Shown piece after piece: positions 1,761 through 61,372 of a DNA stretch of 64,000 nt. Position 1 is the stretch's first letter; each line of letters starts with the position of its first letter. Where the stretch lies: NCBI GenBank assembly GCA_030615175.1, contig JAUWZX010000001.1, forward strand, positions 62,566-126,565, given 5' to 3'. The notes below the pieces were generated by a model. The model was not told the DNA's origin. It saw only the letters and a list, made by a program, of their open reading frames with translations, and did no database searches. The stretch is from Candidatus Parvarchaeota archaeon (GTDB lineage: Archaea; Nanobdellota; Nanobdellia; WJKC01). The position numbers and the translations under genes are program-made.

Positions 1761-2354
1761 ATGAATATTAAAAAAGCAGGATTATTAATAGGGTATGCGA
1801 GGAAAGCAATTAAAGCTAAATTTTCTGGCAGGAGTTACAAGCCTAAGAGCATGCCTGAATCCTTAAAAGTGAAAAGAGGCGTGTTTGTCACATTAGAGAA
1901 GCATCCTTCTAAGATGCTTAGAGGGTGTATTGGTTACGTTGAACCAGTGAAGCCTTTATATAAGGCGGTTATTGACGCAGCATTAAACGCTGCATTCAAG
2001 GATTTGAGATTTAAGGAGTTAAGAAAGGATGAACTTGACCGGTTAACAATTGAATTATCAGTGCTCACGATTCCTGAAGAATTAAAGGGCAGTCCAAGGG
2101 ATTATCCTTTAAAGATTAAAATTGGAGTTCACGGCTTAATAATTGAGTATGGATTAATTAAAGGATTATTACTGCCTCAAGTCGCTGTTGAGTGGGGCGT
2201 TAACCCTGTGCAGTTTCTTAAAATGACTTGCGAGAAGGCAGGCCTGCCAAGTGGTTCATGGATAGACCCTAGAGTAAAAGTATTCACTTTCAAGGCAGAG
2301 TTATTCAAAGAAGAGAAGCCTGGCGGGAAAGTAATTAGGCTTGCGCTTGCCTGA
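1761..2354 (+). CDS. AMMECR1 domain protein
   Basis: 197 aa with RGCIGY motif and LLPQVA segment typical of AMMECR1. Confidence 0.8.
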   Translation: MNIKKAGLLIGYARKAIKAKFSGRSYKPKSMPESLKVKRGVFVTLEKHPSKMLRGCIGYVEPVKPLYKAVIDAALNAAFKDLRFKELRKDELDRLTIELSVLTIPEELKGSPRDYPLKIKIGVHGLIIEYGLIKGLLLPQVAVEWGVNPVQFLKMTCEKAGLPSGSWIDPRVKVFTFKAELFKEEKPGGKVIRLALA

Positions 2355-2841
2355 ACCAGTAATACCACAGAACAAATATTAATATCATTAATCCTTCGCG
2401 CCATAGTATTGTGTGAATGAATTCAGTGATGCTTGGAATAGTAAGCGCCACTAAACTAATTCCTACTAATCTGAGGATGTTAACTGCATAAATAACAGGA
2501 ATTCCTATCAGGGCTTTCTTCTTGCTGCTCCACTGCCTTGGACTCGCTGCCACTAACGCTATGAAAGCCAGTATTGAGCGCCAAGCAGTGCATGCTTCGC
2601 CAATAGCTATTAATTCCCCGTTACTTAACTCTATTGAAGGCATGCCTTCAAAGTCAATGCTTGAATGCTTAACACCAATGATGCTTAAGAAGAAACTTGT
2701 CTGGTCGCGCTCGATTAATTCAAGAGGGTATAAATTAATGTTTAATGCTGCTATTAAGTATAATGGTGCTGCCATGACATTAAAGATTATCAGGAATCTT
2801 AATACCTGCCATAACTGCTCCTGATTTAATGATAAATACAT
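2335..2841 (-). CDS. archaeosortase/exosortase-family transpeptidase-like membrane protein (short form)
   Basis: 168 aa, 4-5 TM helices. IGEACTAWRSILAF matches the exosortase Cys motif (EACSGxRS-like). IYAVNILRLVGIS gives the NxxR Arg motif and FIHTILWREG the His motif. These are the Cys/Arg/His triad in the canonical order. Confidence 0.65.
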   Translation of the reverse strand: MYLSLNQEQLWQVLRFLIIFNVMAAPLYLIAALNINLYPLELIERDQTSFFLSIIGVKHSSIDFEGMPSIELSNGELIAIGEACTAWRSILAFIALVAASPRQWSSKKKALIGIPVIYAVNILRLVGISLVALTIPSITEFIHTILWREGLMILIFVLWYYWFRQAQA

Positions 2842-8092: not shown

Positions 8093-8180
8093 TGGGCTGG
8101 GTCGGATTTGAACCGACGACCTTCACCTTTCTTATATCTTATTGTAAGGGTAACGTCCTAACCAACTAGACCACCAGCCC
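8093..8180 (-). tRNA. tRNA-Val (anticodon TAC) with canonical 14-nt anticodon-loop intron
   Basis: Acceptor GGGCTGG/CCAGCCC, anticodon stem TTACC/GGTGA, loop CTTACA[intron about 8129-8142]A, T arm GTCGG-TTCAAAT-CCGAC. Confidence 0.85.
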
Positions 8181-10036: not shown

Positions 10037-10161
10037 TAATTAAAGAGAACATTGGATGAACTTAAAAATGATGCGTCAGGCATTAAGATTTATTAATTAT
10101 TAATTAATAACTATTTTTTGCATAAAAACATTTATAAATTAATGGTTCATTATTGTTCCAT

Positions 10162-10713
10162 ATGGTTCAAAAATGGATTGAATTTGAGGTTTTACTTAAA
10201 TTGGTTGGTAGAAGTTTTCATTTAAGGGAGTTAGCAAAGCAACTTAAAGCCCCTCATACAACGCTTCTTAGAAAATTGAACGCGCTTGTTAAAGAAGATG
10301 CGTTATTCACAAAAAAGGAAGGTAAGAACAAGATTTATTTTATTAAGAAGGGTTTAGAAGCAAGGAATTATGTTTTCATGGCTGAGTACTACAAACTAAT
10401 TAAGCTAGTTACTAAGTATCCTCAACTAAGCATTATTTTAAAGGATGTTGTTAAGAAGTCGTCATCAGGTCTTATCGTTCTTTTTGGAAGTTATGCGAAA
10501 TTCACTGCAAAACCAAGAAGCGACATTGATTTATTAGTTTTATCTAGTAATAAAGCTGAGAAAAAGAAGATAGAAATGATTAATTCAAGAATTAATGTTA
10601 AACTTGCGTCAAGAATTGATGTTAATAATTTGCTTGTTAAGGAAATTATTAAGGACCACGTAATAATTAAGGGGGTTGAGAGGTTTTATGAGGAAACTAA
10701 AATTCTTGATTAA
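10162..10713 (+). CDS. wHTH + minimal nucleotidyltransferase (MNT) domain protein
   Basis: N-terminal wHTH (LRELAKQLKAPHTTLLRKLNALVKE), then LFGSYAKFTAKPRSDIDLLVL (GSx10-DxD NTase motif). The ORF track starts at TTG 10153; ATG 10162 is more likely. Confidence 0.75.
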   Translation: MVQKWIEFEVLLKLVGRSFHLRELAKQLKAPHTTLLRKLNALVKEDALFTKKEGKNKIYFIKKGLEARNYVFMAEYYKLIKLVTKYPQLSIILKDVVKKSSSGLIVLFGSYAKFTAKPRSDIDLLVLSSNKAEKKKIEMINSRINVKLASRIDVNNLLVKEIIKDHVIIKGVERFYEETKILD

Positions 10714-11170
10714 GTTATCAAAAGATGAGAAGTTGAAATTGGTTAAACCATCTGATGACGTATGCAATGCGTATATCGAGAAGTCTAATAATTCTTTAAA
10801 GTCAGCAAGGATACTTAATGAGTCAATGCTTTATGAGAACTCGATTTCAATGTCTTATTACGCGATGTATCACTCGATACTCGCCTTATTCTTCAAGTGT
10901 GGTATTAAATGTGAGAATCACGCAGCAACGATTATTTTATTAAAAGAGTTATTTAAAGAAAAGAAGTTGTTTAATGTGGTATCTAGAGCTAAAAAGGAAA
11001 GAGTAGACAAGCAATACTATATTGACTTTGAATTAACACGTAATGACTCTCAAGAATTAATAAAGACTGCAGAGGATTTCACAATCCAAATGAGATTACT
11101 TATTAATAAATTCCCTGACGAAAAAATAAAAAGAATTAGAAGTGAACTAAAAGAAGCGTTGAAAGCCTAA
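10688..11170 (+). CDS. HEPN domain protein (partner of the MNT)
   Basis: About 160 aa. SISMSYYAMYHSILALFFKCGIKCENHAAT is typical of PF05168-type HEPN proteins. It overlaps the MNT gene end, and GGGGG/GGTTGAGG lies upstream of ATG 10688. Confidence 0.65.
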   Translation: MRKLKFLIKLSKDEKLKLVKPSDDVCNAYIEKSNNSLKSARILNESMLYENSISMSYYAMYHSILALFFKCGIKCENHAATIILLKELFKEKKLFNVVSRAKKERVDKQYYIDFELTRNDSQELIKTAEDFTIQMRLLINKFPDEKIKRIRSELKEALKA

Positions 11171-11386: not shown

Positions 11387-14300
11387 TTAAGCTTTTTTAT
11401 AAACAACGTATGACACTAGCAGTATTAATATTAAAATGCTTATCCAGTCAGTCGCGCTTGCCATAACATAATTAAACACTCCTGTCGAATAAGTAGTCTG
11501 AACCAACGCAGTGAACAATAAAGTCGCATTATCAACTAATGACTCACTCGTCGCCTGAAAATTAATCGAATAAGTACCTATAGTCACAGGCATCACATCA
11601 ACATAATAAAACGCCTTGCCTCCAGGCTCAATCATTGTCGACAAAATCTTAGACTCACTGTCAACAAAACGAGCCGTTATCCCTGCAGGAATCATTGTCA
11701 AAGTATAATTATGAGGATTATCAGTCGGATTCCTAACCTCCAAATAAGCACTCCTATAACCAGCCTTGCCCTGAGCATAAGCCTGCGACTCAGGATGCAA
11801 ACTGAAATGTGACTCGTAAATATTCACTGTCCTAACATAATCATCCCAGTAATCAGACAAATTAGCCAACACCCTGAAAGTCTTGCTGCCATGAACCACT
11901 GGATTCTCATAAGCATACGAAACATGACCTGCCCTGGACGCATTAGTGCTTAATGCTAATACCCCGTCAATAGTCATCGTAACATTCAACGAGTCTAACG
12001 GGCTTGTATTGCCAGAACACAACACGTAATCAGCTGTTAACGTCTGGTTAGTCCCTATTAAAGTCCTGCTCGGAACATGATAAGCCCCCACTATATCATC
12101 AATACTGAATGAATAATGACTCTCAGTAGTATTACCTAAATCACTTACTGCATAGATTTTGGCATTATAGTCCTTGCAGTCCCATGCCAATGGGGAGTAT
12201 GTCCAGTTGCACCTGTACAGGAATCTCCCAGCGTTTTCGCACGTGAATTCTTCTGAATATACTTCAGCTCCTGCTGAATCATTAACGTCCAGGTGCACTG
12301 CAGTCACTGCCTGCTCTGTAGTGAATACTAGGACTGTTAAGTTCATTTGCTCGCCTGTCCTGTCAACCTTATCGTCATAAGTGAATTGCATTATATCAAA
12401 CGCCACTTCATCTGCTTCCTGAGTAATACTTACTGGTATCTTCTTCCACAAGTAAGTGTTTTCATGGATTTTGTAGTGATGGTCTGAATTATTAAAGACC
12501 GTGAAGTAGAACCTGCCTCCATACGAGTCGCCTGCACTGACTGCTGTCTGCTGGAATCCTATTGGATAATATGAAAACTTTATTAACGAACTCGTAATAT
12601 TGAATTCGTATAATGTATTATTCTCCGCACCCCACGTCTTTTCTTTGAAGAATCCTATAGCATCATGCGTCTGGTTGTTCAGGAATACAACCCAGTCAAG
12701 ACTTGATAATTCTATGCTAAAACTAAGGTTATAATTAGTTACTGTTCCTGAATCATTAATCACGATATTAGTGAAGCGGGTCTTATTTAATGGCATTTCA
12801 AAATACTTTAACCAATCAATTGTTTCACCTGAATTAAACGTTAAATTCTCATCCAACATGAAATAATAAGTGTCTGGCATCGTGATGTTAACCCCCGCCG
12901 GATGACTGCCCTTCACGCTGCCATTGTATGAGTGCACTGCTACTGAAGGAGTCATTTCCAGTTTAGTTGTTAAACCAGTAGCTGTTCTTAACTCACCAAG
13001 CGTTACTGTAGTATCATTATACTCAATTGTTTTTAATCCATAATCAGTAACGTCATCCAACTCATTATGCACGCTGCCTAACTTATCAAACACTGACAGC
13101 ACCTGATACTTTGTAGGACTTAAATCAAGCCTGTAAACTGAATTACTCACATTCCACGTCGGCGCTGTCTCATTAATTATTCCATTACTGTAAGATTTCA
13201 CGTTATGACCTATTGGAGTGTAGTATAACGCGTACACATTACCATCCCTGTTAAAAGGCGAGTCATTCCCTGGCATGTTTATCGGAAAATAAATATCTGC
13301 ATGAGTCAAATTATTATCCGCCCCGCAAGTAGCATTCAATATCATTAACGGGACTTCATAGTAATCACCTGTCGGCAGCACATTAACCACCCTGATTCCT
13401 AACTCGTCTTCAACATCATTATAGTCCCCATCCCCATTAACATCATTGCAGTATGCAGGGTCAGGGAAATCATAACTGTAATTGAATAATTCATTAATCC
13501 TTGAAATATTAGTTACATGACTCATTGACAGGTTAACCTTGTACTTGAATAACTCACTGTCATGACTTAACCACTCATTCTCCCACACCAAACTCAAATT
13601 CTTAACCAGGAACATAGCGTAATTATGCTCACCGTGCTTGCCGTTAAACGCCTGCAAGTGATAATAACCAGTGGCGCCCAGCTCGTAAGTAGCGTTATAG
13701 CAGTTAGTGCCGCACGAAGTCATGTTAATCCTCACCTCAGTAAAATTAGGTTTTATTAACACCACGTTCGGCATGCACTCGCTCGTGACATTAATCCCTA
13801 CAGTGTCCCCTGGATTTAACATCATGCTTGACAAGTTAAACGTCGGAGTCACTGTTGAATTACAATAATAACCAAAGTCGCATACCCTATCAGTTATGAA
13901 ATCCTCATCCTCATCGCACACAACTCCCTGCGGAATAGATACAGCATTACAGCAGCACTTAGGACTTCCTCCCCAATCCTCACCAGTGTCCTCACCGCAA
14001 CACCGAGCCCAAGCATTACGCATAGTACTGTAATCACTGTCCCATGAATATCCTATGGCATCCCAATACATAATATAACTTGAATCGTATCCGTACAGTG
14101 TAAAATATTTAAATGAAACTGGATCTCCATAAAAACCATCAACAAATTGTCCTTTATAATCTCCATCAATCCAACATTTCCACCAATTCGTAGAAGGATC
14201 GCCTGTAGTTAAATCAAATTCTAATTTAAAGTGATACAAATGATCAACAGAATAACTTGCTAATAATTCATGCCAAGTACCATCATAATATTTTAAGCCG

Positions 14301-17300
14301 CCGTCATCATCAAATCTTAAATAAATAGCTTTAGTTGAAGTATCTCTTAAATGAAATATACCCCTTTTATCGTTTACAGAAATCCCCCACCAAAATTCAA
14401 TAGTTCCTGTAGTTCTCACTCCAATATTATTAGTTCCTTGTAATGTATCTCCACTTGCATCTTTATCATATTTAATAACTTTCTTATGACTATCAAAATC
14501 AGAAATTATAGAAATTGTTCCCCCATTATTGTTATATCCATCAAGAAAACCAATATCAGTCCCAGTAGCACCAACAGCATCATCACTGAATGAGTATGTT
14601 GCATCATAGTCTGAAGTAGTGCTCCACGTTAGCCCTTCTGCCTCGCAGTTAGATTGACTCTGGTCCAATGCAGTATAATAATAATCACTGTAGTAGCAGA
14701 TGCTGCCGAACGCGTTAGAATCATTGTAGAAGTAATCACTTGTTGAGTCGTCACCGCAACAGGAAGAGTAAGCAGATGACTTATACAAAGCCATTACTTC
14801 ATTAGCATTAAGAGAACGATTATAGATGCGGGCATCATCAATAGTGCCATTAGCATAATACGTTGTTGAACTACCATGTCTTCCTATTTTACGATTAGCA
14901 AAATTATATGTTAATGAACCTGTTATCCCTGTCTGCTCACCTACATATTCACCATCAACGTAACTTTTTTTTGTTGAACCATCAAAAATAAATCCTATAT
15001 GGTGCCAGTTACCATCCGTTAATCCAGAACCATTATTAGACACGAAACGAGCAGTTGTATAAACACCAGTCCTAAGCTCACCAGTTGATACAGGAATACT
15101 TATCTCTAATTCTTGGCCACCAAATATTATATGGTAACCTCCTGCAGGAGAACCTTCGGATTTGAACCATGCAAAAGCAGAAACTTGAGTTGTGTATCCT
15201 AAATTATTAGATAAATCTATATAATCACCACTACCATCAAAACTCAAAGCATTACCATACTTGCCACTAACCCAGGAAGCATCATAAACTGTGCCGTCAT
15301 TAACGCCTGAATCATCACTCGCAAGCGTTCCTGAGGACTCATCAAAACGCCAATGAGCAACGAGCCCGTCACTGATATTATAAAGCCAGTTATAAGAATA
15401 CTGCTCGCAAACAGTCCGATTAAAATCAATTGACTGATGAGTGAAACTGCCATCCTGACAGAAATAAGTAGTATTACTTAAAGTACCATTATAGAAATCA
15501 TCACTAGCCGCATCATCACCACAGCAAGGAGCATAAGTATTATCACCAACACTGTAATCAGAGTCCCATGAGTAACCAACAGCATCAATGTAAGACGCAA
15601 CAATGTTTGCAGTTCTTTCAAATCTTAAATTATCAACACTGTCCCCTGCATCAAAAAAGGCTCCGTCATTAACAATTAAATCATCATCAACATACCAGTC
15701 AAAAGTGTCAGCAGCACAATCAAAAACCACTTTATGATGCTGCCATGCATTCTCACTAACTGCAACACCAGTATCAGTTAAACTACCCCCTTGATACTTA
15801 TAATTACCAGCATGAACATGCAATGCAAACTGCATATTATCAGCAGCATTATTACTATCAACTAATACCATAAACTGATAATTACCAGACCCATCATCAT
15901 CAAGCCAAGCCCAGAACTCAATAGTGCCTGTAACGACATTGCTAAAATCATTTCCAATATAGTAGTTTTCTGTAAAGTTAATCACTTTGTTATGGCCACC
16001 CCAATTATTAATAACCTCCACAACATTTGTGCCCCCCTCAATAAAATCAATAAAACCAATATTAGTACCAGTAGTGCCTACAGTCTCATCAGTGAATGAG
16101 TAAGTGCCAGGGTAATTAGTATTATTAATCCAGTCATGAGTTAATGCCTCGCAAGCAAACTTGCTTGAATCAGGCTCGATAACACTATAAGTACAGCTGC
16201 CACTACTGCAAGAATAATTCCTGTACTCAGTGCTATACACGCCATCAAGAGTATCACAATCCTCTGAAGAGAAACCGCAGCCAGAATCACTGCAAACACC
16301 AGCATAATACCTAACATTACCAGTACAATAACTGGTTAAATCACAATTAGGACAGCCAGTACCAGCATAATAACAAGTCACGCCTGACGCGCAGTAACCA
16401 TCACCAGCGCTGCCAGAATCACAAGTCAAATAATTAATAGGATAAGCACTTGCAGTGCTGCCATAACTACCCTCATTCGCAGCACCATCCTTTGCCCTGA
16501 CCTTATAAGTATACTGGGAGAAACAATCCAAACCACTATCAACATAAGGACTTGAAACCCAACCACTATCAGTACTACCAGGATTGCTTGAAGTCTCATC
16601 AACCTGATAAGAATCAACACCAGTAGTGACTGTATTTGAACCAGTTGCATTTACTTTATAAACTCTTAAATTCCTGAAAAATGTAGTTCCGTCATTAATT
16701 TCATCCGGGTAATGATAAGCCCCTACTCTAATTTCATGTTCAAATTCCTCTGTTACTGTAAATGTTTCATGAAATGGAGTCCAGTAAGTATTACCTGTTC
16801 CAAAACTCGTGCTTTTAATCCAACTATCAGTTGTATTAGCAGTCCATATGAAAACTGTTGATGTTCCTCCTGCCGCGTTTCTCGTGCTGTCAACTCTTAC
16901 TTCTCCTTCTAATATAAATATGTTTCCTACTTCTAATGAACCCATTGTCACGATATCTTCATCAAGATAGTAGTTATACCCTGTGCCTGAATAATTATGC
17001 GCTTCTATACTATTCTCTAATAAATTATTCACATTCCCACTCTCATCAAACGATTTCAAGTAGTAATAATAATCATCACCAGCGTCACTAACACTGCTCC
17101 AACTCACTTGAAGAGAAGTCGTGGACGCTTCAGTCACAGTGGGCGCGTCGGGTGTGCCAGGAACAGTACCATCAATAGCTCCTGTATCACTGTACGTATT
17201 ATCCATAATGAGAGGAGTGAGTCTGAAATTATCATAATAATACTTGGTTGCGGCAACGCCATTCCTGTCGTCCTTTAAAATAAAAACTCCGCTACTAGTA

Positions 17301-20300
17301 TCAGACCACTTCCTGATAAGCACACAATCAACATAAAACCTAAAAACACTGCCGTCAAAAATAACCTTCCAATGCTGGCCAAAAGCCCCGGCAACAGTAA
17401 CGCCATCAACCTGATAATCACCACTAAGCCTTCGTATGTAATTCCCGCCAACCAGAATGCCATGCTCGCTCCCGTCATTCAATATATCAACCTCGAGCTC
17501 GAAAGGCTCGCCAGAACCAATATCCTCAATCAAAGTCAAATAAGTGTCAGCGCTGCCAGAAGAATTAGACCATAACTCGCCGTCAGTAACACCAACAAGG
17601 CCATCACCCAAAGTAGCAGTCCACACAGGATTACTCGTGTAATCACCATCACTAAAATCATCCCACACGCCGCCAACAGGAGTGTAATTCCCATCAGAAG
17701 TGTTGCTCCTGTAAAAACCATGAGATAACAAACCAGACTGCATATCATTAATAACCTCGCTTTGACTAAGAACACGATTATAAATACGCACTTCATCAAC
17801 AATGCCATTGAAATAGTGTCCAGAACCTGCTGCTGCAGACGCTATAGTTACATCATAAGGATTTGAAACCAAACTAATTGCAGGAGTACTATCTGAACTA
17901 ACTAATAATCCATCAACATACATAACTGCTGTCGTTGCAGAAGCATCCCAAGTCACACTCGCATAATGCCAATCAGTATCATCAAAATCATAAAAAGGAT
18001 CAACACAATTCCCATAAGTTGTATCACAAATATAAAAATTAAGACGACCACTACTCGACCATAATTTCCAACCAACAGTACCATAACTTCCAGTACTCCC
18101 TGTAGCAGCAACAATTGGCTCCCTATACGCTGTAAGATTCTCTGACTTAAACCACACTAAAACAGAAAAATCATTAGCAAGAGAATCCAAATAAGGAATA
18201 TCTTCAACAAGCACAGTATTAGGTGAAACGCCTCCATCAAAACTTAATGCCCCACCATGTTCACCAGTAGTATAAGTTCCACCATTAATACTCCCATCAT
18301 AATCATATATACTGTGGTCTTGAGCCACGCTACCACTACCCTCCTCAAAAGGCAAATACAATAATAAACTGTCATTTCCCTCAACAAAAGTTAAATCCAT
18401 TTCATTATTCACGTTATCAGCAGTCACTGTCAAGTTAGGCGCTGAAGGCCCAGTCCTGTCTAATGTAACATTGCAGACAGTTGAACTCCAATCACTATAA
18501 TGACCCGGACTGCTCTCCACATCCTGTATCCTAACCCTGTAACAATAAACAGTATTATCACTTAAACTGGAATGAGTATAAGACGTGTCAGTACCATAAT
18601 ACCTCTGCGCAGAAGAAGGAGTCGTCTCCTCAACACTATACTCATAACCAGTTGGCGGACTGCCAGACCACGCAATTACCATCTCACCCAAACCAGAATT
18701 CAACGATTCATTATCCTGAAATAAAACAGAATCCAAAGAAGGAGTTGAAAGAGCAGTGCAAAGATAACTACTGCAATACTCACCCGCCGCGCAATCACTA
18801 TCACCACAACAATCACTGCCACTACTACCAACACAAGAACTGGAACAGCAAATACCATCCTGCACGTAATCAGCACCAGACAAACCACTATCACACGAAT
18901 CAGTATCAACACAATTACCGCAACCCTGAGTATAACGATTACTACTAGCAGAATCAACACAAACCTCACCAGACGTTATACAATTAGCATCAGCATCAGT
19001 AACACCACTACCATCATTAACGCAAATACCATCAGCAGAATAAACCCCACTACTAACAGAATTATCACACTGCTTCTCACTAGTCACATCATCATCATCA
19101 CAATCACACTCACTATCAGTCACGACCTCATCAGTACAACAAGAACTGCCACCACAAAGACCATCCCTTAAATAACTCGCGCCAGCAAGAGAACTATCAC
19201 ACTCCCTGCTACCAGAACAACCACTATAATAAGTAGAATCCGCCTTAGAAATCACAGCAGTGTTAGCCCTGCAATCAGTACTAGCGCAAATACCGGCAGC
19301 AGTACCATCAAAAGCACCAACAACCTCACACTTAAGACCAGACGAATCACAACCACACACATCATCACTAGTGCCAAGAGAAGCATCACTGCCATAACTC
19401 ACATCATCAGTGCAAAGAACTCCATCAACACAAGCACGAGTAGAATTATAAAAATTATCACTAGTAGTATCATCACCACAACAAGGATCATTATCACCAG
19501 TAGTAGTGCCAGCAAACCAATCATCCTCACCTGAATTACAAGTTGACTGAGAATCATCAGGCTCACAACTACCACCACAAGTCTCCTCATCACAGCCCTG
19601 ATCCACCCAGGCAGTATAAGAGCAAGTGCAGGAACTAGTGCAAGAACTTGCAGTCCTTGTATACAAGTTACCTGAAGTCAAACCAATGTTCTGACCGCAA
19701 TCACTCGTATAAGTGCAGTCACTAACATTATCACAATCAGCCTCACAATTAGCCTCACTCTGAGTACAAGTACCATCACTCCAACCACTATAAGAACAAG
19801 CACAGGAAGAAGTGCAAGACCTAGTTCTCGTCTGATAAATAGTGCCACTACACTGAGTAAGAGCCTCAGTACAGTCAGTAGCAGAATCACAATCAGCACC
19901 GCAATTAGCCTCACTCTGAGTGCAAGTACCATCAACCCAACTACCATAACTACAAACACAAGCACTAGTGCACGCGCGGGACCTGGTCTGATAAATAGTG
20001 CCACTACACTGAGTAATGGCAGTGCAGTCACCAACAGCATCACACTGAGCGCCACAGGCCTGGGAACACGTCGAAGTACATGAACCGCCAGAACAAGTAT
20101 AAGAACCGCAATCCGCTGTAACACACGTAGAAAAAACGCAAGCTGTTTTCGTACACGAACCAGTCTTCCTAGCACAACTACCACTACATGCTACAGCGCA
20201 GGAAGCACAATACCAAGGAGGGGAAGGAGTCTGTACAGAAGTATAACAACTAGCATACATGGTGTCCTCATTCATGCAAGCATAATTAGTCGAGAAAGCA

Positions 20301-20359
20301 ATGGAAGATAAGGATAGCAAAACTAAAACTACTATTCCTAAACGCGACTTCACCCTCAT
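11387..20359 (-). CDS. giant secreted cysteine-rich surface protein (2990 aa) with Cys-rich modules, FN3, LamG/ConA-like domains and a C-terminal TM anchor
   Basis: Single uninterrupted ORF.
- Signal peptide MRVKSRLGIVVLVLLSLSSIAFS.
- Three CSGTIYQTR..C..C.CSY..W.DG.CTQSEANC modules.
- Four CCG[DE]D modules.
- FN3-like segments (e.g. TSLQVSWSSVSDAGDDYYYYLKS).
- Two Laminin_G_3-type domains (...FNGIVDEVRIYNRVLSQSEV; ...GTIDDARIYNRSLNANEV).
- Many N-x-S/T sequons.
- C-terminus ATDWISILILILLVSYVVYKKA. Confidence 0.85.
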   Translation of the reverse strand: MRVKSRLGIVVLVLLSLSSIAFSTNYACMNEDTMYASCYTSVQTPSPPWYCASCAVACSGSCARKTGSCTKTACVFSTCVTADCGSYTCSGGSCTSTCSQACGAQCDAVGDCTAITQCSGTIYQTRSRACTSACVCSYGSWVDGTCTQSEANCGADCDSATDCTEALTQCSGTIYQTRTRSCTSSCACSYSGWSDGTCTQSEANCEADCDNVSDCTYTSDCGQNIGLTSGNLYTRTASSCTSSCTCSYTAWVDQGCDEETCGGSCEPDDSQSTCNSGEDDWFAGTTTGDNDPCCGDDTTSDNFYNSTRACVDGVLCTDDVSYGSDASLGTSDDVCGCDSSGLKCEVVGAFDGTAAGICASTDCRANTAVISKADSTYYSGCSGSRECDSSLAGASYLRDGLCGGSSCCTDEVVTDSECDCDDDDVTSEKQCDNSVSSGVYSADGICVNDGSGVTDADANCITSGEVCVDSASSNRYTQGCGNCVDTDSCDSGLSGADYVQDGICCSSSCVGSSGSDCCGDSDCAAGEYCSSYLCTALSTPSLDSVLFQDNESLNSGLGEMVIAWSGSPPTGYEYSVEETTPSSAQRYYGTDTSYTHSSLSDNTVYCYRVRIQDVESSPGHYSDWSSTVCNVTLDRTGPSAPNLTVTADNVNNEMDLTFVEGNDSLLLYLPFEEGSGSVAQDHSIYDYDGSINGGTYTTGEHGGALSFDGGVSPNTVLVEDIPYLDSLANDFSVLVWFKSENLTAYREPIVAATGSTGSYGTVGWKLWSSSGRLNFYICDTTYGNCVDPFYDFDDTDWHYASVTWDASATTAVMYVDGLLVSSDSTPAISLVSNPYDVTIASAAAGSGHYFNGIVDEVRIYNRVLSQSEVINDMQSGLLSHGFYRSNTSDGNYTPVGGVWDDFSDGDYTSNPVWTATLGDGLVGVTDGELWSNSSGSADTYLTLIEDIGSGEPFELEVDILNDGSEHGILVGGNYIRRLSGDYQVDGVTVAGAFGQHWKVIFDGSVFRFYVDCVLIRKWSDTSSGVFILKDDRNGVAATKYYYDNFRLTPLIMDNTYSDTGAIDGTVPGTPDAPTVTEASTTSLQVSWSSVSDAGDDYYYYLKSFDESGNVNNLLENSIEAHNYSGTGYNYYLDEDIVTMGSLEVGNIFILEGEVRVDSTRNAAGGTSTVFIWTANTTDSWIKSTSFGTGNTYWTPFHETFTVTEEFEHEIRVGAYHYPDEINDGTTFFRNLRVYKVNATGSNTVTTGVDSYQVDETSSNPGSTDSGWVSSPYVDSGLDCFSQYTYKVRAKDGAANEGSYGSTASAYPINYLTCDSGSAGDGYCASGVTCYYAGTGCPNCDLTSYCTGNVRYYAGVCSDSGCGFSSEDCDTLDGVYSTEYRNYSCSSGSCTYSVIEPDSSKFACEALTHDWINNTNYPGTYSFTDETVGTTGTNIGFIDFIEGGTNVVEVINNWGGHNKVINFTENYYIGNDFSNVVTGTIEFWAWLDDDGSGNYQFMVLVDSNNAADNMQFALHVHAGNYKYQGGSLTDTGVAVSENAWQHHKVVFDCAADTFDWYVDDDLIVNDGAFFDAGDSVDNLRFERTANIVASYIDAVGYSWDSDYSVGDNTYAPCCGDDAASDDFYNGTLSNTTYFCQDGSFTHQSIDFNRTVCEQYSYNWLYNISDGLVAHWRFDESSGTLASDDSGVNDGTVYDASWVSGKYGNALSFDGSGDYIDLSNNLGYTTQVSAFAWFKSEGSPAGGYHIIFGGQELEISIPVSTGELRTGVYTTARFVSNNGSGLTDGNWHHIGFIFDGSTKKSYVDGEYVGEQTGITGSLTYNFANRKIGRHGSSTTYYANGTIDDARIYNRSLNANEVMALYKSSAYSSCCGDDSTSDYFYNDSNAFGSICYYSDYYYTALDQSQSNCEAEGLTWSTTSDYDATYSFSDDAVGATGTDIGFLDGYNNNGGTISIISDFDSHKKVIKYDKDASGDTLQGTNNIGVRTTGTIEFWWGISVNDKRGIFHLRDTSTKAIYLRFDDDGGLKYYDGTWHELLASYSVDHLYHFKLEFDLTTGDPSTNWWKCWIDGDYKGQFVDGFYGDPVSFKYFTLYGYDSSYIMYWDAIGYSWDSDYSTMRNAWARCCGEDTGEDWGGSPKCCCNAVSIPQGVVCDEDEDFITDRVCDFGYYCNSTVTPTFNLSSMMLNPGDTVGINVTSECMPNVVLIKPNFTEVRINMTSCGTNCYNATYELGATGYYHLQAFNGKHGEHNYAMFLVKNLSLVWENEWLSHDSELFKYKVNLSMSHVTNISRINELFNYSYDFPDPAYCNDVNGDGDYNDVEDELGIRVVNVLPTGDYYEVPLMILNATCGADNNLTHADIYFPINMPGNDSPFNRDGNVYALYYTPIGHNVKSYSNGIINETAPTWNVSNSVYRLDLSPTKYQVLSVFDKLGSVHNELDDVTDYGLKTIEYNDTTVTLGELRTATGLTTKLEMTPSVAVHSYNGSVKGSHPAGVNITMPDTYYFMLDENLTFNSGETIDWLKYFEMPLNKTRFTNIVINDSGTVTNYNLSFSIELSSLDWVVFLNNQTHDAIGFFKEKTWGAENNTLYEFNITSSLIKFSYYPIGFQQTAVSAGDSYGGRFYFTVFNNSDHHYKIHENTYLWKKIPVSITQEADEVAFDIMQFTYDDKVDRTGEQMNLTVLVFTTEQAVTAVHLDVNDSAGAEVYSEEFTCENAGRFLYRCNWTYSPLAWDCKDYNAKIYAVSDLGNTTESHYSFSIDDIVGAYHVPSRTLIGTNQTLTADYVLCSGNTSPLDSLNVTMTIDGVLALSTNASRAGHVSYAYENPVVHGSKTFRVLANLSDYWDDYVRTVNIYESHFSLHPESQAYAQGKAGYRSAYLEVRNPTDNPHNYTLTMIPAGITARFVDSESKILSTMIEPGGKAFYYVDVMPVTIGTYSINFQATSESLVDNATLLFTALVQTTYSTGVFNYVMASATDWISILILILLVSYVVYKKA

Positions 20360-20402: not shown

Positions 20403-20747
20403 TCATTGAATAATGCAAGACACGTTTCCCAATAAGAAGACTTCGCAGGCACCTGTTTTGTTAACGCACTCATTAATATACTGCTTCACTTGTGGCTTCA
20501 GCATGAACCAACGGCACTCCTCACAACCAAAAGGATTCCCCAACAATTCCTGGCACAAATCCTGACATTCTGAATAAGATAACGTATCCTCCACATAATA
20601 TGACGCAACCTCCACTCCTGAAGCGTTGGACTCAATACCAGTGAATATAATAGGGAAAAAATAAACAAGAATGAAGAAGATGAACATTAAAAGCGCTATC
20701 GCAGTTATTATAACCATATTAATTGGCAATTTTTGTTTAGCCACCAT
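20403..20747 (-). CDS. small N-terminally anchored Cys-rich protein
   Basis: 114 aa. One TM helix (MVIITAIALLMFIFFILVYFFPIIF), then a roughly 75-aa ectodomain with 8 Cys (CQDLCQ..GCEEC..EC..GAC..SC). Same strand as the two giant genes and lies between them. Confidence 0.5.
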   Translation of the reverse strand: MVAKQKLPINMVIITAIALLMFIFFILVYFFPIIFTGIESNASGVEVASYYVEDTLSYSECQDLCQELLGNPFGCEECRWFMLKPQVKQYINECVNKTGACEVFLLGNVSCIIQ

Positions 20748-20930
20748 GAAATAAATAAAGAAGTATCAGGAATATATAAATATTAAGAATTAAAATAAAA
20801 AAATAATAAATTAGTTGCAACTACTTCATATATCAGTCCTGAAGCCACACTTAATATTAAAGCAATTTTGAGATTGGTATAAACAAAGAACCCTGAATAA
20901 ATATTAATTACTGGTTACGCTAACAATGAA

Positions 20931-21200
20931 GGGCGCATCCTTGGGTTGGCAAGGTAAGCGCTTAAAGGTTTAACTGAACGGGCTCCTCCACCCCGTTGAC
21001 CTGAAAGCACGACTCAACATGCTTAAGGCTGCTTCCTCCCGGATCTGACCCGGTTCACAAGTTGAACCGCCAGACAGGGCGAGGCTTCGCAGAAACCTGA
21101 ACAGGCCCTTAAACCCAAACCAAGTCGTCCCAAGGCATTCAGCCCCACCATAAGGGGGTTTGCGGTAACAGGGAACCCCTAACTCCCCGGCCTAGCACCC
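20931..21200 (-). ncRNA. signal recognition particle RNA (archaeal 7S/SRP RNA)
   Basis: GC-rich non-coding island. The minus strand starts GGGTGCTAGGCCGGGGAGTTAGGGG. It contains the helix-8 signature GGTCAGATCCGGGAGGAAGCAGCC (compare the conserved GGUCCGGAAGGAAGCAGC). The 5' GGGTGC pairs with the 3' GCGCCC, and long helix-5 pairings are visible (CCTTGGG/CCCAAGG, TTTAAGG/CCTTTAA). Ends are approximate to within a few nt. Confidence 0.85.
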
Positions 21201-21222
21201 AAGTAAAGAATTAGTAATTGGG

Positions 21223-21232
21223 ATTTTTAATA
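21223..21232 (-). promoter_or_regulatory. putative TATA box for the SRP RNA gene
   Basis: Minus-strand TATTAAAAAT is centred about 27 nt upstream of the inferred SRP RNA 5' end, which is the canonical archaeal spacing. Confidence 0.35.
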
Positions 21233-21251
21233 CTTTCGGCACATCACAGCC

Positions 21252-24200
21252 CTATCTGCTGCGCTTGCGGTACACAATAAGCGAAGCAAGGATAAGAAGC
21301 AATAGGAAGCTGAAGTAATCAGTAGCTCCTGCAGTGTGAACCCCGAAAAAGCCAGTCTCCTTGGTGAACACTGTTACTTGAAAGCCAATGGAATCAGTGA
21401 TGTTAGGGCATGCGCCAGTGCTCGTGAACGCTAATTGAACGTCGCGCTCGCCAGAGCTTAAAGGAAGCACTGTAAGCCTGATTAACCGCTTAGCGCCTGG
21501 AAGAATTGAAAAAGTTTCGGCATTAAATTCCCTGTTATTAAAAGACTTTTCACCAGTCCTGTAAGTAATTAATAAACCATTATCATAAGATGTTGCAGGA
21601 CTGTACTCAACAGGTATGTTGCCTAGGTTTGTCAAAGTCACTAATACCCTTCCAATCTCATTTAAAGCAACAGGTATTGCAGTAGTAATGCCTGGACTGA
21701 CTGATGAAATATCCAGTGGATTCAATATTGTAAAATTAAAATCCTTTAATAATTCATCCCAGCCGCCAGTCGCAGTAGAGTAAGAACAATTTAATTGCAT
21801 ATTATAAGACTTGCCAAAGTCAGCGCAGCTAAAAGTTCCGAAATCAAAAGTTACTAACCCTGAGTCTCCAACCCTTACAATTGTTGGATTACTAGGGTTT
21901 GGTATGTAACTAAGTGTTGTGTTAAGAATACAGGTTAAGTTCTCAAGCAGTTCATCGCCACTATTTCTTATCAGGAATTCTGTAACGAAGTCGCCTCCCA
22001 AGTAACTGCTGTTAGAATCTGAAGCTGAAATGAATATTCCAGGCAGTCGTCCATTCTCGCATACTGCATCAATATTCCCGTCATTATCAAAGTCGCAGGT
22101 CCCTCCATTATTAATAACAGCGCCATTACAGCAGCAGGTCAGCGTTAAATTGCCAAAGTCATCACTATCCCCGTCATCACCGCAGCACCTACTGCCAGTC
22201 GCTGTTGCACCAGCCAGCCATGTATAACCATAGTACTCGCAAATAGTCTGATTAACATCAATAGCCTGCTCAGTTAAAACACCATCATGACAGAAATAAG
22301 TAGTGGTAGCAAGAGTGCCGTTATAGAAATCATCACTAGCCGTGTCATCACCGCAGCAAGAAGTGTTATTGCCAATAGTTGAACCAGTAAGCCAAGTGTA
22401 ACCACCTGCCTCGCAAAAAGTCTGCCAAGCATCCCTATCACTAGATGGTGAACCATTATAGCACGCGCGACTGGAATTATAGAAATCATCACTAGTCGTG
22501 TCATCACCGCAGCAAGGGCCTTTACTCCCGATGATTCCTGTATTTTCAATAAAAGAAAGAGTGTCATCATAATAATTCGTAACCACAATATCAAGAATTC
22601 CATCTTCATTTAAATCACCTAAAGCAACAAATGATGATTCGGCTCCAGTAGCACCAGTAACTTGAGCGTCAAAAGTGCCGTCACCATTACCAGCAAGGAA
22701 AGAATAAGTATCATCATCATAATTTACAGTAACAATATCAAGATTACCATCATTATTTAAATCACCTAAAGCAATATCTAGAGGATTAGTCCCGACACTA
22801 ATGGTTACTTGAGCATCAAAAGTGCCATCACCATTACCACTAATAAAAGAAACATTATTATCATTATAATTCGCAGTCACAATATCAAGATTACCATCCT
22901 TATCCAAATCACCAATGGCAACACCTATAACCCAATTACCAACAGCACCAGTCACTTGACTATCAAAAGTGCCATCACCATTACCAGCAAGGAAAGAATA
23001 AGTATTATTAGCATTATTTGTAACCACAATATCAAGATTACCATCCTTATCCAAATCACCAATGGCAACACCAAAAGGATTCCATCCAGTAAGAATAGTT
23101 ACTTGAGCATCAAAAGTGCCATCACCATTACCACTAATAAAAGAAACATTATTATCATTATAATTCGCAGTCACAATATCAAGATTACCATCCTTATCTA
23201 AATCACCTAAAGCAAGAAATGCAGGACCACTCCCCGTGGCACCAGTTACTTGAGCGTCAAAAGTGCCGTCACCATTACCACTAATAAAAGAATAAGTATT
23301 ACTAAGACCGTTCGTAACTACAATATCAAGATTACCATCATTATCTAAATCGCCAATGGCAACATCATAAGGTTCGGTTCCAGTAGCACCTGTCACTTGA
23401 GCATCAAAAGTGCCATCACCATTACCAGCAAGGAAAGAATAAGTATCATCATCATAATTCACAGTCACAATATCAAGATTACCATCATTATTCAAATCGC
23501 CAATGGCAACACGCATAGGTGAAACCCCAGTACTGCTCGTTACTTGAGCATCAAAAGTGCCGCCACCAGTAAACCATTCATAACCCTTTAACTCGCACAC
23601 GCCTTGACCGCTCGTGTAATTAATATAGTCTCCAAACCAGTCCTGATAATAATGATGGTCAGCGTCTAAGATAATGCCTCCATAACTGCACATTTGAGAT
23701 GAATTATAGAATATGTCAGTGAAGTCATCATCACCGCAGCACGCATCATTACTGCCAGTAGTGGTGCCGGAAAGCCAGATGTAACCACTTGCCTCGCAGG
23801 CAGTCTGGTTAAAATCAATTGATTGCTCAGTGAAAACGCCATCCTGACAGAAATAAGTAGTGGTAGCAAGAGTGCCATTATAAAAATCATCACTGGCTCC
23901 ATCATCACCACAGCAAGCATCATTATTGCCAGTGGTAGTGCCAGTAAAGTAAATATAACTATACTGCTCGCAAATAGTTTGATTAACATCAATAGCCTGC
24001 TCAGTGAAACTGCCATCCTTACAGAAATAAGTAGTGCTGCCAATAGTGCCATTATAGAAATCATCACTAGCAGCATCATCACCGCAGCAATTAGAGTAAG
24101 CAGATGATTTATACAAAGCAGTTATTTCATCAGCAGAGAGAGCGTGGTTATAAATGCGGATATCATCAATAGTGCCGTTATAAAAGTAAATTGCACCATA

Positions 24201-52374: not shown

Positions 52375-52426
52375 TTAAAAAGTAAAAGAATTAAATAAAT
52401 AAATAACTTATTACTAATGAATTAAA

Positions 52427-53071
52427 ATGAAATTCATAATTAATGTTTATAAAAGGATTAAGGAAATCATATTAAGACCTGAATCATTTTTTAAAAAGAA
52501 CAAGGATGGCATAGAAGAAATCAGTAAATTCCTGCTTGTAATGCTTATAGTGCCTGCAGTGACTTCAATAATAAGGCAGGCATACTTAAGTTACCAGCTA
52601 AGTATTTTAGAAGGTTACCTGCCTCTTGAAATAACAACCATTGTTCAATACCAATTAAGTAATTTTTCAATAATCACGGCAATTAATGAATACTTTTTAA
52701 GCATAATACTTTACATAATCATTACCTTAATCACTCACTTCTTATGGAGGGTTTTTGGAGGAAGAGGACTCTTAGAAGATAGTTTAAGAGCAGTGATTTA
52801 CGGAAGCACTCCTTATTTATTGTTTGGGTGGGTGCCGCTAGGAGGGACTCTTATCTTTTTATACAGTTTTTACTTGATAATCCTTGGCGGGGCAATTAAT
52901 CATAAGATAAGTAAGTTAAGGTCGCTCATTGCCATAATAATAATTCCTGCAATAATAACTGTCTTATTTTTATTAAACATGGCACGCCTGCCTTTTATTT
53001 ACAGCCAAATCATGCAGATAAGCAGTGCATTAAATGAAAGCCTTATTAATGAATCACTTTTTTATTATTAA
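52427..53071 (+). CDS. Yip1-domain membrane protein
   Basis: 214 aa. Short soluble N-terminus (ILRPESFFKK), then 5 TM helices, which is the Yip1/YIF1-like topology. Confidence 0.45.
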   Translation: MKFIINVYKRIKEIILRPESFFKKNKDGIEEISKFLLVMLIVPAVTSIIRQAYLSYQLSILEGYLPLEITTIVQYQLSNFSIITAINEYFLSIILYIIITLITHFLWRVFGGRGLLEDSLRAVIYGSTPYLLFGWVPLGGTLIFLYSFYLIILGGAINHKISKLRSLIAIIIIPAIITVLFLLNMARLPFIYSQIMQISSALNESLINESLFYY

Positions 53072-53134
53072 ATTGTCTTAACAAATTTTTCTAAGAAAAC
53101 TTAATAAAACCTAAAACGCTTCAGTTAGAAATTG

Positions 53135-53647
53135 ATGAGGGGGCGGCCGAGCAAGTCAAAGATAAGGGAGCGGATTGCTGCAATAATAAACAAGATTGGA
53201 TTAAGTTATGGTTATGAAATTTACAAATTTTACAAAGAAGTTTACGGCGACGTGACTTCAAGAATTATTTACTACCACTTAAAAAAAGGAGCTGAAATAG
53301 GTGAATTCAACATTATCCGCACTAAAAGCGAGTTAGGCCTTTATAGCTGGGGCGCTGAAAGTGAAAGAGTTTACTACGCAATTGGTCCATACGCTGCACT
53401 AAAGGAAGATGGCTTAATTACTGCTTCAAAAATTAATTATGAACCAAGAGAACTTAAGTACGACTGGGAGGAAGAAATACAAAATTATTATAAAAAATTA
53501 AGGGAAAAAGCAAGGAAAGTCAAAGGCAAGGATGCTGGAAGAATAATCAATAAGTGTGATAAATTAATTAGTTGGTGCAGAATGAGATTAAATAATCCTG
53601 AAGAGTATGTTAAAAGAATAGAATCAATTAAAACCAGTCTACACTAA
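53135..53647 (+). CDS. hypothetical protein with PadR-like winged helix
   Basis: About 170 aa. GYEIYKFYKEVYGDVTSRIIYYHLKKGAEIGEF resembles a PadR-type wHTH. Confidence 0.4.
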   Translation: MRGRPSKSKIRERIAAIINKIGLSYGYEIYKFYKEVYGDVTSRIIYYHLKKGAEIGEFNIIRTKSELGLYSWGAESERVYYAIGPYAALKEDGLITASKINYEPRELKYDWEEEIQNYYKKLREKARKVKGKDAGRIINKCDKLISWCRMRLNNPEEYVKRIESIKTSLH

Positions 53648-54739: not shown

Positions 54740-54791
54740 TTAAAAAAATAAAAGAACTTCCCATTTATAAGTTTTCCAAAAAACTCTCTGA

Positions 54792-55079
54792 CCCCCTCAC
54801 TTCATATGGAAAAATTAATAAAATGGTTTAAAAACATTAAATGCCCCTTGACTTCACATGGAACTCATGCCTTGTAAATCAATAGACACCCTATCATTTC
54901 TTGTGGAATAAGCAATATAATAATATATTTATTTTATTATTATATTATTATATTAAATTATTATGAATTATTTACTATATAGAAAAAAATTCTCTTTTTC
55001 AAAAAGAAGCCCAAAACAAGCTTGTTTTCATTTTTAACTAATTCCACATGAAAAATTAACCCTCCATATGAAGTAAGCG
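54792..55079. promoter_or_regulatory. replication origin (oriC): inverted ORB-like boxes flanking an AT-rich unwinding element
   Basis: - Left boxes: CCCCCTCACTTCATATGGAA (54792-54811), CCCCTTGACTTCACATGGAA (54844-54863), CCCTATCATTTCTTGTGGAA (54889-54908).
- About 75 nt of nearly pure A/T (54910-54985).
- Right boxes in inverted orientation: TTCCACATGAA (55042-55054) and TCCATATGAAGT (55063-55079). ACTTCATATGGA has a perfect 12-nt inverse partner.
- The left boxes carry a C(G)-string like full ORBs.
- The region lies immediately upstream of orc1/cdc6. Confidence 0.75.
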
Positions 55080-55140
55080 TGTGATTGTGTTGTCTTTGAA
55101 AAAGAAAACATTATAAGCTTCATTTCCTTTGGATTTTTTT

Positions 55141-56355: not shown

Positions 56356-56370
56356 AGTTTTTTCCTATTC

Positions 56371-57786: not shown

Positions 57787-57875
57787 ATTTATTCGCGTCT
57801 TAAGACCGCATCTTATGAGTATTGTTTTACACTTCACTAATCTTTTTTAAGTCATTAATCATCTTTAATGCTTTG

Positions 57876-61292: not shown

Positions 61293-61372
61293 TTCGTATA
61301 GTATAATTTCCTTTGGAAGGGTTACATTTTTAAAGCGTTATTGTTTAATTTACTTTAAAAGGGGGGTATAGA

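Follow-up and report, generated by a model that had tools for sequence, protein, structure and literature searches.

A modular giant surface protein with a conserved stalk and lectin-type modules, a candidate adhesin of a DPANN archaeon

Results

Two giant genes lie on either side of an SRP RNA gene

We analyzed 64,000 nucleotides from a Candidatus Parvarchaeota archaeon (GenBank assembly GCA_030615175.1, contig JAUWZX010000001.1, positions 62,566 to 126,565), hereafter called the window, in which two very large genes lie on either side of an archaeal signal recognition particle (SRP) RNA gene. The larger of the two, gene A, is one uninterrupted open reading frame (ORF) on the minus strand (11387-20359), whose translation runs for 2,990 codons from an ATG and gives a polypeptide of 326 kDa before glycosylation with a pI of 4.1; its 8,970 stop-free nucleotides at 38% G+C exclude a chance origin. 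Gene B (21252-28472, minus strand) encodes 2,406 amino acids and was recognized by Pfam annotation and alignment as a partial paralogue of gene A, and the SRP RNA gene (20929-21202, minus strand) holds a position that is conserved in four other assemblies. An initial annotation of this DNA, made from the letters of the sequence, had described gene A as a single 8.97-kb reading frame with a signal peptide and a C-terminal transmembrane (TM) segment, and had estimated that the two genes fill about a quarter of the window in an organism with a reduced genome. These statements hold. Genes A and B take up 25% of the window and ~2.2% of the source contig of 726,884 bp, which carries archaeal housekeeping genes (in the window these include the SRP RNA, tRNAs, aminoacyl-tRNA synthetases, PolD, Cdc6/Orc1, a proteasome subunit, FttA, and eRF1), and the closest genome found, with 65% identity in the stalk described below, is labeled "Candidatus Parvarchaeota archaeon Meg22_1618_Bin_99" and belongs to the DPANN archaea (kingdom Nanobdellati).

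The N-terminus of gene A reads MRVKSR followed by LGIVVLVLLSLSSIAF and has, by hydropathy, the form of a Sec signal peptide (aa 1-23, 20291-20359; MRVKSR, a hydrophobic core, and AFS), with the same layout in gene B. The public gene call, P0001, has the sequence of gene A from aa 252 onward, and both the signal peptide and the first cysteine-rich (Cys-rich) repeats are missing from it. The longer form is supported by the signal peptide itself, by the 68% identity of aa 51-282 to the N-terminus of gene B, and by the 52% identity of aa 85-249 to P0023 (P numbers denote homologous proteins, L numbers related assemblies). Two out-of-frame ORFs inside the Cys-rich 5′ parts of genes A and B (19678-20184, 168 aa, and 27821-28414, 197 aa, both on the minus strand) are rich in V, L, and R, and their ends are nearly identical. 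The repeat composition almost certainly gave rise to them as spurious ORFs, and their presence may account for the start of the public call at aa 252. At the other end of the protein, the last 35 residues (...YVMASATDW-ISILILILLVSYVVY-KKA) comprise one hydrophobic helix, which is also present in the predicted structure model, and three residues after it. Among the ORFs of the window, only genes A and B combine a signal peptide with a C-terminal TM helix, and Pfam and NCBIfam scans detected no catalytic domain anywhere in either of them.

A Cys-rich tip and CCGDD linker modules

Gene A divides into a series of modules, all of them on the minus strand. Behind the signal peptide lies Cys-rich tip I (aa 24-290, 19490-20290), in which sequence repeats define three tandem units of ~52 aa with 8 Cys each (aa 105-263); this is where the identities of 68% to the gene B N-terminus and 52% to P0023 are found, and it has no Pfam or PDB match. 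The first CCGDD module and Cys-rich region II follow (aa 291-545, 18725-19489), where sequence comparison brings out repeated "CDSS.xGAxYxxDGxC" units and 46% identity to aa 1712-1956 of P0002, again without a Pfam match. Cys-rich segment III (aa 1301-1409, 16133-16459) was delimited by its 12 Cys. A Cys-rich region therefore exists as had been proposed, but the accompanying count of well over a hundred Cys applies to the whole protein: 71 of the 116 Cys lie in aa 1-545, with 6, 12, 10, and 17 in the remaining regions.

The CCGDD module is a unit of ~50 aa with four Cys and the consensus P-CCGDD-xxSDDFYNx(S/T)...C.DG.......D.NQ..CE..GY.W, and such units bracket nearly all of the globular modules. 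Gene A has three canonical copies, one as given above and two as linkers 2 (aa 1611-1661, 15377-15529) and 3 (aa 1866-1915, 14615-14764, recognized by the motif), as well as a variant at the start of the stalk; 11 copies occur in gene B and up to 15 in homologues. Every canonical copy carries a conserved FYN-x-S/T sequon. We observed the module in genes A and B, in P0002-P0004, P0017, P0019, P0026, and P0027, in L003 and L004, and in two B-type genes. It has no Pfam match, and a literature search returned nothing relevant. An alignment search of 5.8 billion proteins gave no matches, but only 13 word candidates entered it, and it is not a measure of distribution. In an AlphaFold2 model the module appears as small hairpins with a short helix, at a predicted local distance difference test score (pLDDT) of 50-60.

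Lectin-type and FN3-like modules of gene A

Pfam identifies two Laminin_G_3 (PF13385) domains in gene A at 151.3 bits against a cut-off of 27.6 (matched stretches aa ~679-870 and 1708-1855), as the initial annotation had supposed; they extend over aa ~658-877 (17729-18388) and aa ~1658-1863 (14771-15388). Its two paralogous ConA-like modules were likewise recovered, with the motifs that had been quoted for them, at aa 1410-1606 (15542-16132) and aa 1912-2114 (14018-14626). These two modules are 31% identical to each other over ~195 aa, have six further copies in homologues, and show no Pfam match of their own. The profile of all eight copies matches 5hon_A (AbnA domain 4) with E = 2.7e-4, the LamG-like structure 4qvs_A, and neurexin LNS domains; individually, two of the eight match Sialidase-like_CBM (9e-7), two match Laminin_G_3 (4e-5), and one matches Polysacc_lyase. 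A hidden Markov model built from LamG domains only also matches ConA-like module 1. By these profile comparisons, the two ~195-aa modules are members of the ConA/LamG superfamily, an assignment made at the superfamily level only.

The AlphaFold2 model of aa 1398-2124 has a mean pLDDT of 59.3, with 70-93 in the part covering Laminin_G_3 domain 2 and 60-85 in ConA-like module 2. When the Laminin_G_3 domain 2 region was compared with solved structures by Foldseek, the best match was 5hon_A (TM 0.74 on the target, root-mean-square deviation (rmsd) 3.4 Å, 213 columns), followed by the lectin domain of a trypanosomal trans-sialidase (rmsd 2.9), the receptor-binding HCN domain of a clostridial neurotoxin, and neurexin LNS. 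All of the structural matches of the lectin-type modules are carbohydrate- or receptor-binding jelly rolls. A binding role for gene A is thus supported by at least four jelly-roll modules of the ConA/LamG type whose closest solved folds bind carbohydrates or receptors.

The FN3-like units were proposed to number three. Unit 1 (aa ~546-650, 18410-18724) scores above its Pfam cut-off (Interfer-bind, 23.8 bits against 21) and is homologous to the FN3 units of P0004. Unit 2 reaches an fn3 score of 17.7 against a cut-off of 25, and unit 3 has no Pfam match; their motifs (aa ~1070-1100 and ~1250-1300) align to the N- and C-terminal halves, respectively, of an intact FN3 domain at aa 1979-2057 of P0004. 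The alignment suggests that units 2 and 3 are probably the halves of one FN3 domain (aa ~1065-1300, 16460-17167) interrupted by an insert of ~140 aa, for which a tentative assignment as a CBM4/9-type domain was withdrawn as Pfam and the PDB gave it no support. Upstream of this split domain, aa ~878-1050 (17210-17728) have no family match in Pfam or PDB searches; the counterpart in P0004 has diverged past detection by BLAST between conserved flanks. The guess that this segment is a DUF1080-type domain was withdrawn for the same want of Pfam or PDB support.

The ligand of such modules might lie in the surroundings and not on a cell, and gene A would then be a substrate-capture protein whose lectin- or CBM-like modules bind environmental polysaccharides or glycoconjugates for scavenging. 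The closest solved fold is the sugar-binding domain 4 of an extracellular arabinanase, and the Polysacc_lyase match and the two Sialidase-like_CBM matches within the family fit this idea as well. Neither gene A nor gene B, however, contains a detectable catalytic domain, the window ORFs that were scanned include no glycoside hydrolase or sugar-uptake transporter (the only transporters are of the EamA family and a P-type ATPase), and gene B contains integrin-like FG-GAP propellers, which are typical of adhesion proteins. We regard substrate capture as quite unlikely and prefer binding to other cells as the role of these modules.

The C-terminal stalk is a conserved, sequon-rich module

The region of ~1000 aa at the C-terminus had been described as free of repeat structure and recognizable motifs. 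That description does not stand: alignment of orthologues and a structure model show that the region is a conserved module of beta-sandwich domains, which we call the stalk (aa 2115-2965, 11465-14017) and which opens with a CCGED/CCCN junction. Residues 2120-2990 of gene A align end to end with the C-termini of six other proteins, with stalk identities of 38% for P0002 (3,500 aa), 31% for P0003 (4,102 aa), 39% for P0027 (2,757 aa), 37% for P0028 (a fragment of 841 aa), 65% for L003 (partial), and 38% for L004 (partial). An exhaustive search of 1.84 billion representative proteins with the stalk profile returned 17 proteins at E <= 1e-3; the whole module is present in four of them, and in most of the others the match is limited to the final ~330 residues and lies at the C-terminus of the protein. 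From 241 million metagenome records, the only addition was a second copy of the L002 locus.

The stalk model, with a mean pLDDT of 63.6, is all-beta. Beta-sandwich segments are predicted confidently at model residues 50-260 and 540-850, prediction is poor at 270-535, and at least five beta-sandwich domains reach a usable confidence. Foldseek matched the stalk only to arrays of macroglobulin (MG)/Ig-like domains, with E values down to 7e-16, and the model supports the description "string of beta-sandwiches" and nothing beyond it. Arrays of this kind in alpha-2-macroglobulin and complement thus give the best stalk matches, as generic beta-sandwich arrays only. Membership of the alpha-2-macroglobulin family was rejected: no global superposition was obtained (TM ~0.12), the CGEQ thioester motif is absent, and there is neither sequence similarity nor a Pfam A2M family. 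A loop with the sequence DVNGDGDYNDV is invariant in three aligned stalk orthologues and looks, from its residues, like a calcium-binding loop of the DxDxDG type.

The stalk contains 37 N-x-S/T sequons, compared with 11.9 expected from its composition, a number that none of 2,000 shuffles reached. In the three remaining parts of the protein the counts agree with expectation (2 against 4.6, 12 against 10.3, and 10 against 9.1), and aa 1-2000 contain 24 where 25 are expected. The earlier picture of a heavily sequon-decorated protein is therefore right for the C-terminal ~870 aa and does not extend to the rest. Enrichment recurs in all five full stalks; 25 alignment columns have a sequon in at least three of the five, and 15 of the 37 sequons of the gene A stalk fall at columns common to at least three of the five orthologues. 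Sequon enrichment and invariant columns together point to purifying selection on the stalk. No oligosaccharyltransferase of the AglB/STT3 type was found among the window ORFs scanned with Pfam. The distant relative L006 (GCA_018221045.1) encodes AglB/STT3 and two glycosyltransferases (20437-24526) 5 kb downstream of its surface-protein gene, an arrangement that fits N-glycosylation of these surface proteins.

The C-terminal tail and a nearby archaeosortase-family gene

The tail of gene A (11387-11464) consists of SATDW (aa 2968-2972), a hydrophobic helix seen both by hydropathy and in the model (aa 2972-2987), KKA, and the stop codon. With its short motif, 16-aa hydrophobic helix, and basic end it has the tripartite shape of an exosortase/archaeosortase signal (PMC6098224), a resemblance of shape only. 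All stalk-type and B-type proteins end in the same manner, with a short motif, a hydrophobic helix of ~18 aa, and K/R; the motif before the helix is PGLD[W/L], SGFDI, PEFNW, PDLNM, or PDFDY in homologues, and SATDW, GATDY, or DATDL in this lineage. Genes A and B share the ATD[W/Y] motif, the TM helix, and the basic tail though the domains in front of them have no detectable homology. Judged from its sequence, the tail may anchor the protein in the manner of type I membrane proteins, or it may be a candidate signal of the sortase type.

An exosortase/archaeosortase-family protein of 168 aa (TIGR04178, 46.6 bits against a cut-off of 23) is encoded 8.5 kb from gene A (2335-2841, minus strand). 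Its Cys84, Arg124, and His143 are invariant. The protein falls below the cut-off of every named subfamily and has no Pfam annotation. A homologue is found in each of the four distinct assemblies in which the region is visible (L002/L005, L003, and L007 among them), and in related genomes the gene has a conserved place between ERCC4/DUF460 and AMMECR1. A 176-aa gene downstream of the distant homologue in L006 was also considered as an archaeosortase and rejected.

It is tentatively conceivable, then, that the tail ([S/G/P]-x-[T/L/F]-D-[W/Y], TM helix, K/R) is cleaved by the nearby archaeosortase-family enzyme and that the protein becomes lipid-anchored. Several observations count against this proposal. 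None of the NCBIfam CTERM models reached its cut-off on seven tails, the best being PEF-CTERM with 15.6 against 23, on P0030 only. The motif before the helix is short and differs between genomes, and a TM helix followed by basic residues is generic to type I membrane proteins. The sortase gene itself lies within a conserved block of housekeeping genes, and its proximity to gene A may be plain synteny. Literature searches for archaeosortases in DPANN archaea gave no title or abstract on an enzyme and signal pair of this kind, and those for pacearchaeosortase-type names gave nothing relevant; a new sortase signal and archaeosortase pair in DPANN is a possible lead only.

Genes A and B share mosaic tracts of high DNA identity

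Gene B has a Cys-rich tip as in gene A, three sets of seven FG-GAP blades, one LamG domain, a short stalk, and GATDY with a TM helix and an RKRSR tail. Common to the two genes are the signal peptide, three Cys-rich units, CCGDD modules, a LamG cassette (48% identity), the CCCN junction, and the ATD[W/Y] motif with its TM helix and basic tail; past the junction of ~58 aa (CCGDD/CCCN), the C-terminus of gene B has no detectable homology to the gene A stalk. The term paralogue, which had been applied to gene B without qualification, is accurate for part of the gene: what it has in common with gene A is limited to the Cys-rich tip, the linkers, a single LamG cassette, and the tail.

The near-identical segment reported for the two genes was confirmed, DNA positions 15383-15537 (gene A) being 90% identical to 24732-24886 (gene B), a tract in which CCGDD linker 2 lies. 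Nucleotide identity varies sharply along the shared parts. It is 83-93% in the linker and at the edges of the LamG domain, with third-position identity of up to 0.90, but falls to 32-55% in the LamG core (aa 1712-1838), where third codon positions are near-random at 0.05-0.4, and it is 80-92% in the Cys-rich tip. A further shared tract lies at 19513-20057 in gene A and 27656-28197 in gene B. This mosaic, read from the DNA, suggests that genes A and B have recently exchanged particular tracts. Strong identity is confined to two specific tracts and is not a property of CCGDD linkers in general; the idea that the linkers are DNA-homogenized recombination handles was rejected, since their same-codon fraction (0.68 against 0.53 expected) shows no special signal beside an FG-GAP control (0.60 against 0.50).

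Shared tracts of 80-92% DNA identity raise the question of whether gene A might be an assembly chimera, or a decaying pseudogene, arising from collapsed A/B repeats, the more so as such genes often break assemblies: the contigs of L003 and L004 end inside the giant gene. Yet the shared tracts span only 155-300 nt and are at most 92% identical, and no stop codon or frameshift occurs in the 8,970 nt of gene A. The module order that ends in stalk and tail is seen in independent assemblies, and the sequon enrichment and invariant columns of the stalk show purifying selection. In addition, the 4,102-aa orthologue was recovered in two assemblies, from ENA and JGI (L002 10001-22309 and L005 281-12589), that differ there by 2 nt, which argues that giant ORFs of this type assemble reproducibly. 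We consider an artifact very improbable. Both differences between L002 and L005 are nonsynonymous (aa 247 and 459, in the first FG-GAP propeller), with none in the 9,994 nt downstream, a small sample.

The stalk is conserved at a fixed locus and the heads differ

The locus has the order DnaG-like Toprim protein, one or more B-type surface genes, SRP RNA, stalk-bearing giant gene, tRNA, RsmB-like methyltransferase, and UPF0113/PUA protein. This order is the same in the window, L001, L002/L005, L003, L004, and L007, and is partly kept in the distant L006. The SRP RNA stands directly upstream of the stalk-bearing gene in the window and in L001 (9659-9931), L002 (9674-9950), L006 (9682-9960), and L007 (9431-9708); of these five, L006 conserves only the last ~330 aa of the stalk. 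Adjacency of SRP RNA and giant gene could reflect either co-regulation or plain synteny.

Among the orthologues the stalk is the only part that is conserved. The heads, by which we mean the parts in front of it, differ in each genome and consist of ConA-like arrays, LamG arrays with DUF2341, FG-GAP propellers, or RCC1-like repeats, with a Cys-rich tip in this window only. Even L003, 65% identical in the stalk, has FG-GAP repeats in place of ConA-like module 1 of gene A. The name given to the relatives at NCBI is "LamG-like jellyroll fold domain-containing protein."

This pattern bears on the suggestion that gene A encodes an envelope or S-layer-type structural protein, in which the stalk would build an outer protein layer that the distal part decorates. 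Sole conservation of the stalk would suit such a role, as would a fixed core-genome locus in place of an island, and the C-terminal anchor and heavy sequon load resemble those of archaeal S-layer glycoproteins with archaeosortase anchoring (PMC6098224). A phmmer search with the whole protein gave one solved structure at E <= 0.01, 4qvs_A, named "S-layer domain-containing protein," and the "surface layer" of Mia14 has been proposed to consist of several large strain-specific proteins (PMC5498576). On the other hand, the 4qvs match is confined to a LamG-like domain, no S-layer family matches in Pfam or NCBIfam, and a length of 2,990 aa with a different head in every orthologue is atypical of a lattice subunit. 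We view a structural role as unlikely, yet it is the main rival to the adhesin reading developed below, with substrate capture weaker and an assembly artifact unlikely.

Some features of the locus vary from genome to genome. At the B-type position, L002 (3639-7811) encodes a 1,390-aa protein with Peptidase_S74 and BNR repeats, and with neither CCGDD modules nor a TM tail. Peptidase_S74 is an intramolecular chaperone domain of the tail-spike type, and the occurrence of this protein indicates that the first slot of the locus takes very different surface proteins. Between the SRP RNA and gene A lies a 114-aa ORF (20403-20747, minus strand) with one N-terminal TM helix, 8 Cys, and no family match; L001 and L002, with a gap of just 50-70 nt at this position, lack it there. 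On the other side, between gene A and the RsmB-like gene, two overlapping plus-strand genes (10153-10713 and 10676-11170) form an NTP_transf_2 and HEPN pair of the MNT-HEPN toxin-antitoxin type. The corresponding site holds a tRNA and one or two small ORFs in L001 and L002 and a 411-aa ORF on the opposite strand in L003, and appears to be variable. In the related loci, a tRNA of ~83 nt lies directly downstream of the giant gene; the window has an 88-nt tRNA at 8093-8180 (minus strand) that ARAGORN left without an assignment (anticodon given as "acaa") and that possibly contains an intron. Farther away, positions 52000-61300 are a likely replication-origin region, where G+C falls to 0.33 at 52-56 kb beside Cdc6/Orc1 (55129-56355) and the small and large PolD subunits (56371-61292).

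Discussion

The results reported above describe a gene whose product carries a signal peptide, a large acidic ectodomain (pI 4.1), a sequon-rich stalk, and a C-terminal anchor, and these features support its display at the cell surface. An S-layer, adhesin, or host-interaction role had been suggested for it; surface display and a binding role draw support from the sequence, and the S-layer possibility is kept as a rival. We hypothesize that gene A encodes an anchored, glycosylated lectin-type adhesin with which this DPANN archaeon binds other cells, a reading to which we give somewhat better than even chances; attachment to a host in particular is inferred. The protein would be exported by the Sec/SRP route, and its C-terminus would stay in the membrane through the helix or, after sortase cleavage, through a lipid. 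An N-glycosylated stalk would then hold the binding modules away from the membrane. Beyond it, FN3-like spacers and ConA/LamG jelly rolls joined by CCGDD modules would extend to a Cys-rich tip of ~520 aa farthest out, and the lectin-like modules and the tip may bind glycans or glycoproteins on the envelope of another cell, be it a host or a partner. Over evolutionary time, the stalk would serve as a conserved chassis on which the distal modules are exchanged.

Some of what we found weighs against this hypothesis. About 40% of the residues of gene A (the Cys-rich regions, aa 878-1050, the FN3 insert, and stalk model residues 270-535) have neither a family nor a usable model, the mean pLDDT is low in both structure models (63.6 and 59.3), and the macroglobulin matches of the stalk have the very low TM value given above. 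ConA/LamG folds also occur in enzymes and substrate-binding modules, and the fold is not proof of cell-cell adhesion. Moreover, a disulfide role for the many extracellular Cys is uncertain in an organism that likely lives in anoxic sediment.

A part in host recognition has been proposed for giant and LamG-rich surface proteins of DPANN archaea (PMC10266531, PMC5498576), and the class to which gene A belongs, giant lectin-rich DPANN surface proteins, is already known. Like the LamG proteins of Mia14 ("ARMAN-2") and of Ca. Nanohalococcus (SVXNc_0801-0831), which are secreted or membrane-bound, have several ConA/LamG domains, take a large share of very small genomes, and are proposed to recognize the host envelope (PMC5498576, PMC10266531), gene A combines such domains with a large claim on a reduced genome. 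Unlike them, it has a conserved stalk of ~850 aa that is known in a handful of assemblies, and CCGDD linkers and a Cys-rich tip that have no Pfam match and no mention in the literature searched; its locus is also a fixed one in the core genome, unlike the genomic island that houses the LamG genes of Mia14. The SPEARE proteins of Nanohaloarchaeota (5,000-9,400 aa) are similarly giant and acidic, with a signal peptide, Ig-like/FN3-like arrays, and a role thought to lie in host interaction, but they have several TM segments and, at the C-terminus, a cytoplasmic AAA+ ATPase domain of the VirB4/TraG-like kind, and a function as a secretion device has been proposed for them (PMC10266531). Gene A has no ATPase or other enzymatic domain in Pfam and NCBIfam scans, one TM helix, and a cytoplasmic tail of three residues, and its classification as a SPEARE-type protein was rejected for lack of the ATPase domain and for the single TM helix.

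The S-layer glycoprotein of Haloferax volcanii and other archaeosortase (ArtA/PGF-CTERM) substrates share with gene A the signal peptide, an N-glycosylated ectodomain (predicted in the case of gene A), the succession of motif, TM helix, and basic tail, and an archaeosortase-family enzyme encoded in the genome (PMC6098224). They differ in that the gene A motif is not PGF, PEF, or VPXXXP, that no curated CTERM model matches it, and that the enzyme is recognized at the level of a family signature only. Giant bacterial adhesins and integrin-like FG-GAP/LamG proteins, for example repeat-rich ice-binding and RTX proteins, use a beta-sandwich extender to project ligand-binding modules. Gene A follows the same design logic of a long extender with projected binding modules, but it is anchored by a C-terminal TM helix where the bacterial proteins depend on outer-membrane or type I secretion retention, and in contrast to RTX-type adhesins it has no RTX repeat and its extender domains are not near-identical tandem copies.

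What is new here is the very rare stalk module, the CCGDD linker module, and a fixed, SRP-RNA-linked locus with reshuffled heads. A bolder proposal is that the SRP-RNA-linked pair of giant genes forms a lineage-specific surface-variation system, with a glycan-shielded stalk, a lipid anchor attached by a new archaeosortase subfamily at a new sorting signal, and binding modules that are bracketed by CCGDD units and recombined between genes and strains. We think this doubtful as a whole; if true, it would mean that host or partner specificity can be re-tooled while the anchoring chassis is left untouched.

The prevailing view has DPANN archaea living attached to other cells, and to our knowledge hardly any of the molecules responsible have been identified. 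Our reading of gene A restores the signal peptide missing from the public gene call, and it delimits the stalk and the CCGDD unit, two modules that had no annotation. If gene A proved merely structural, it would still be a useful marker of a very rare lineage. The conserved stalk could be used as a marker or as an antibody target, and the locus offers a concrete candidate for cell contact, with a fixed chromosomal position and interchangeable lectin-type heads whose ligands could be screened.

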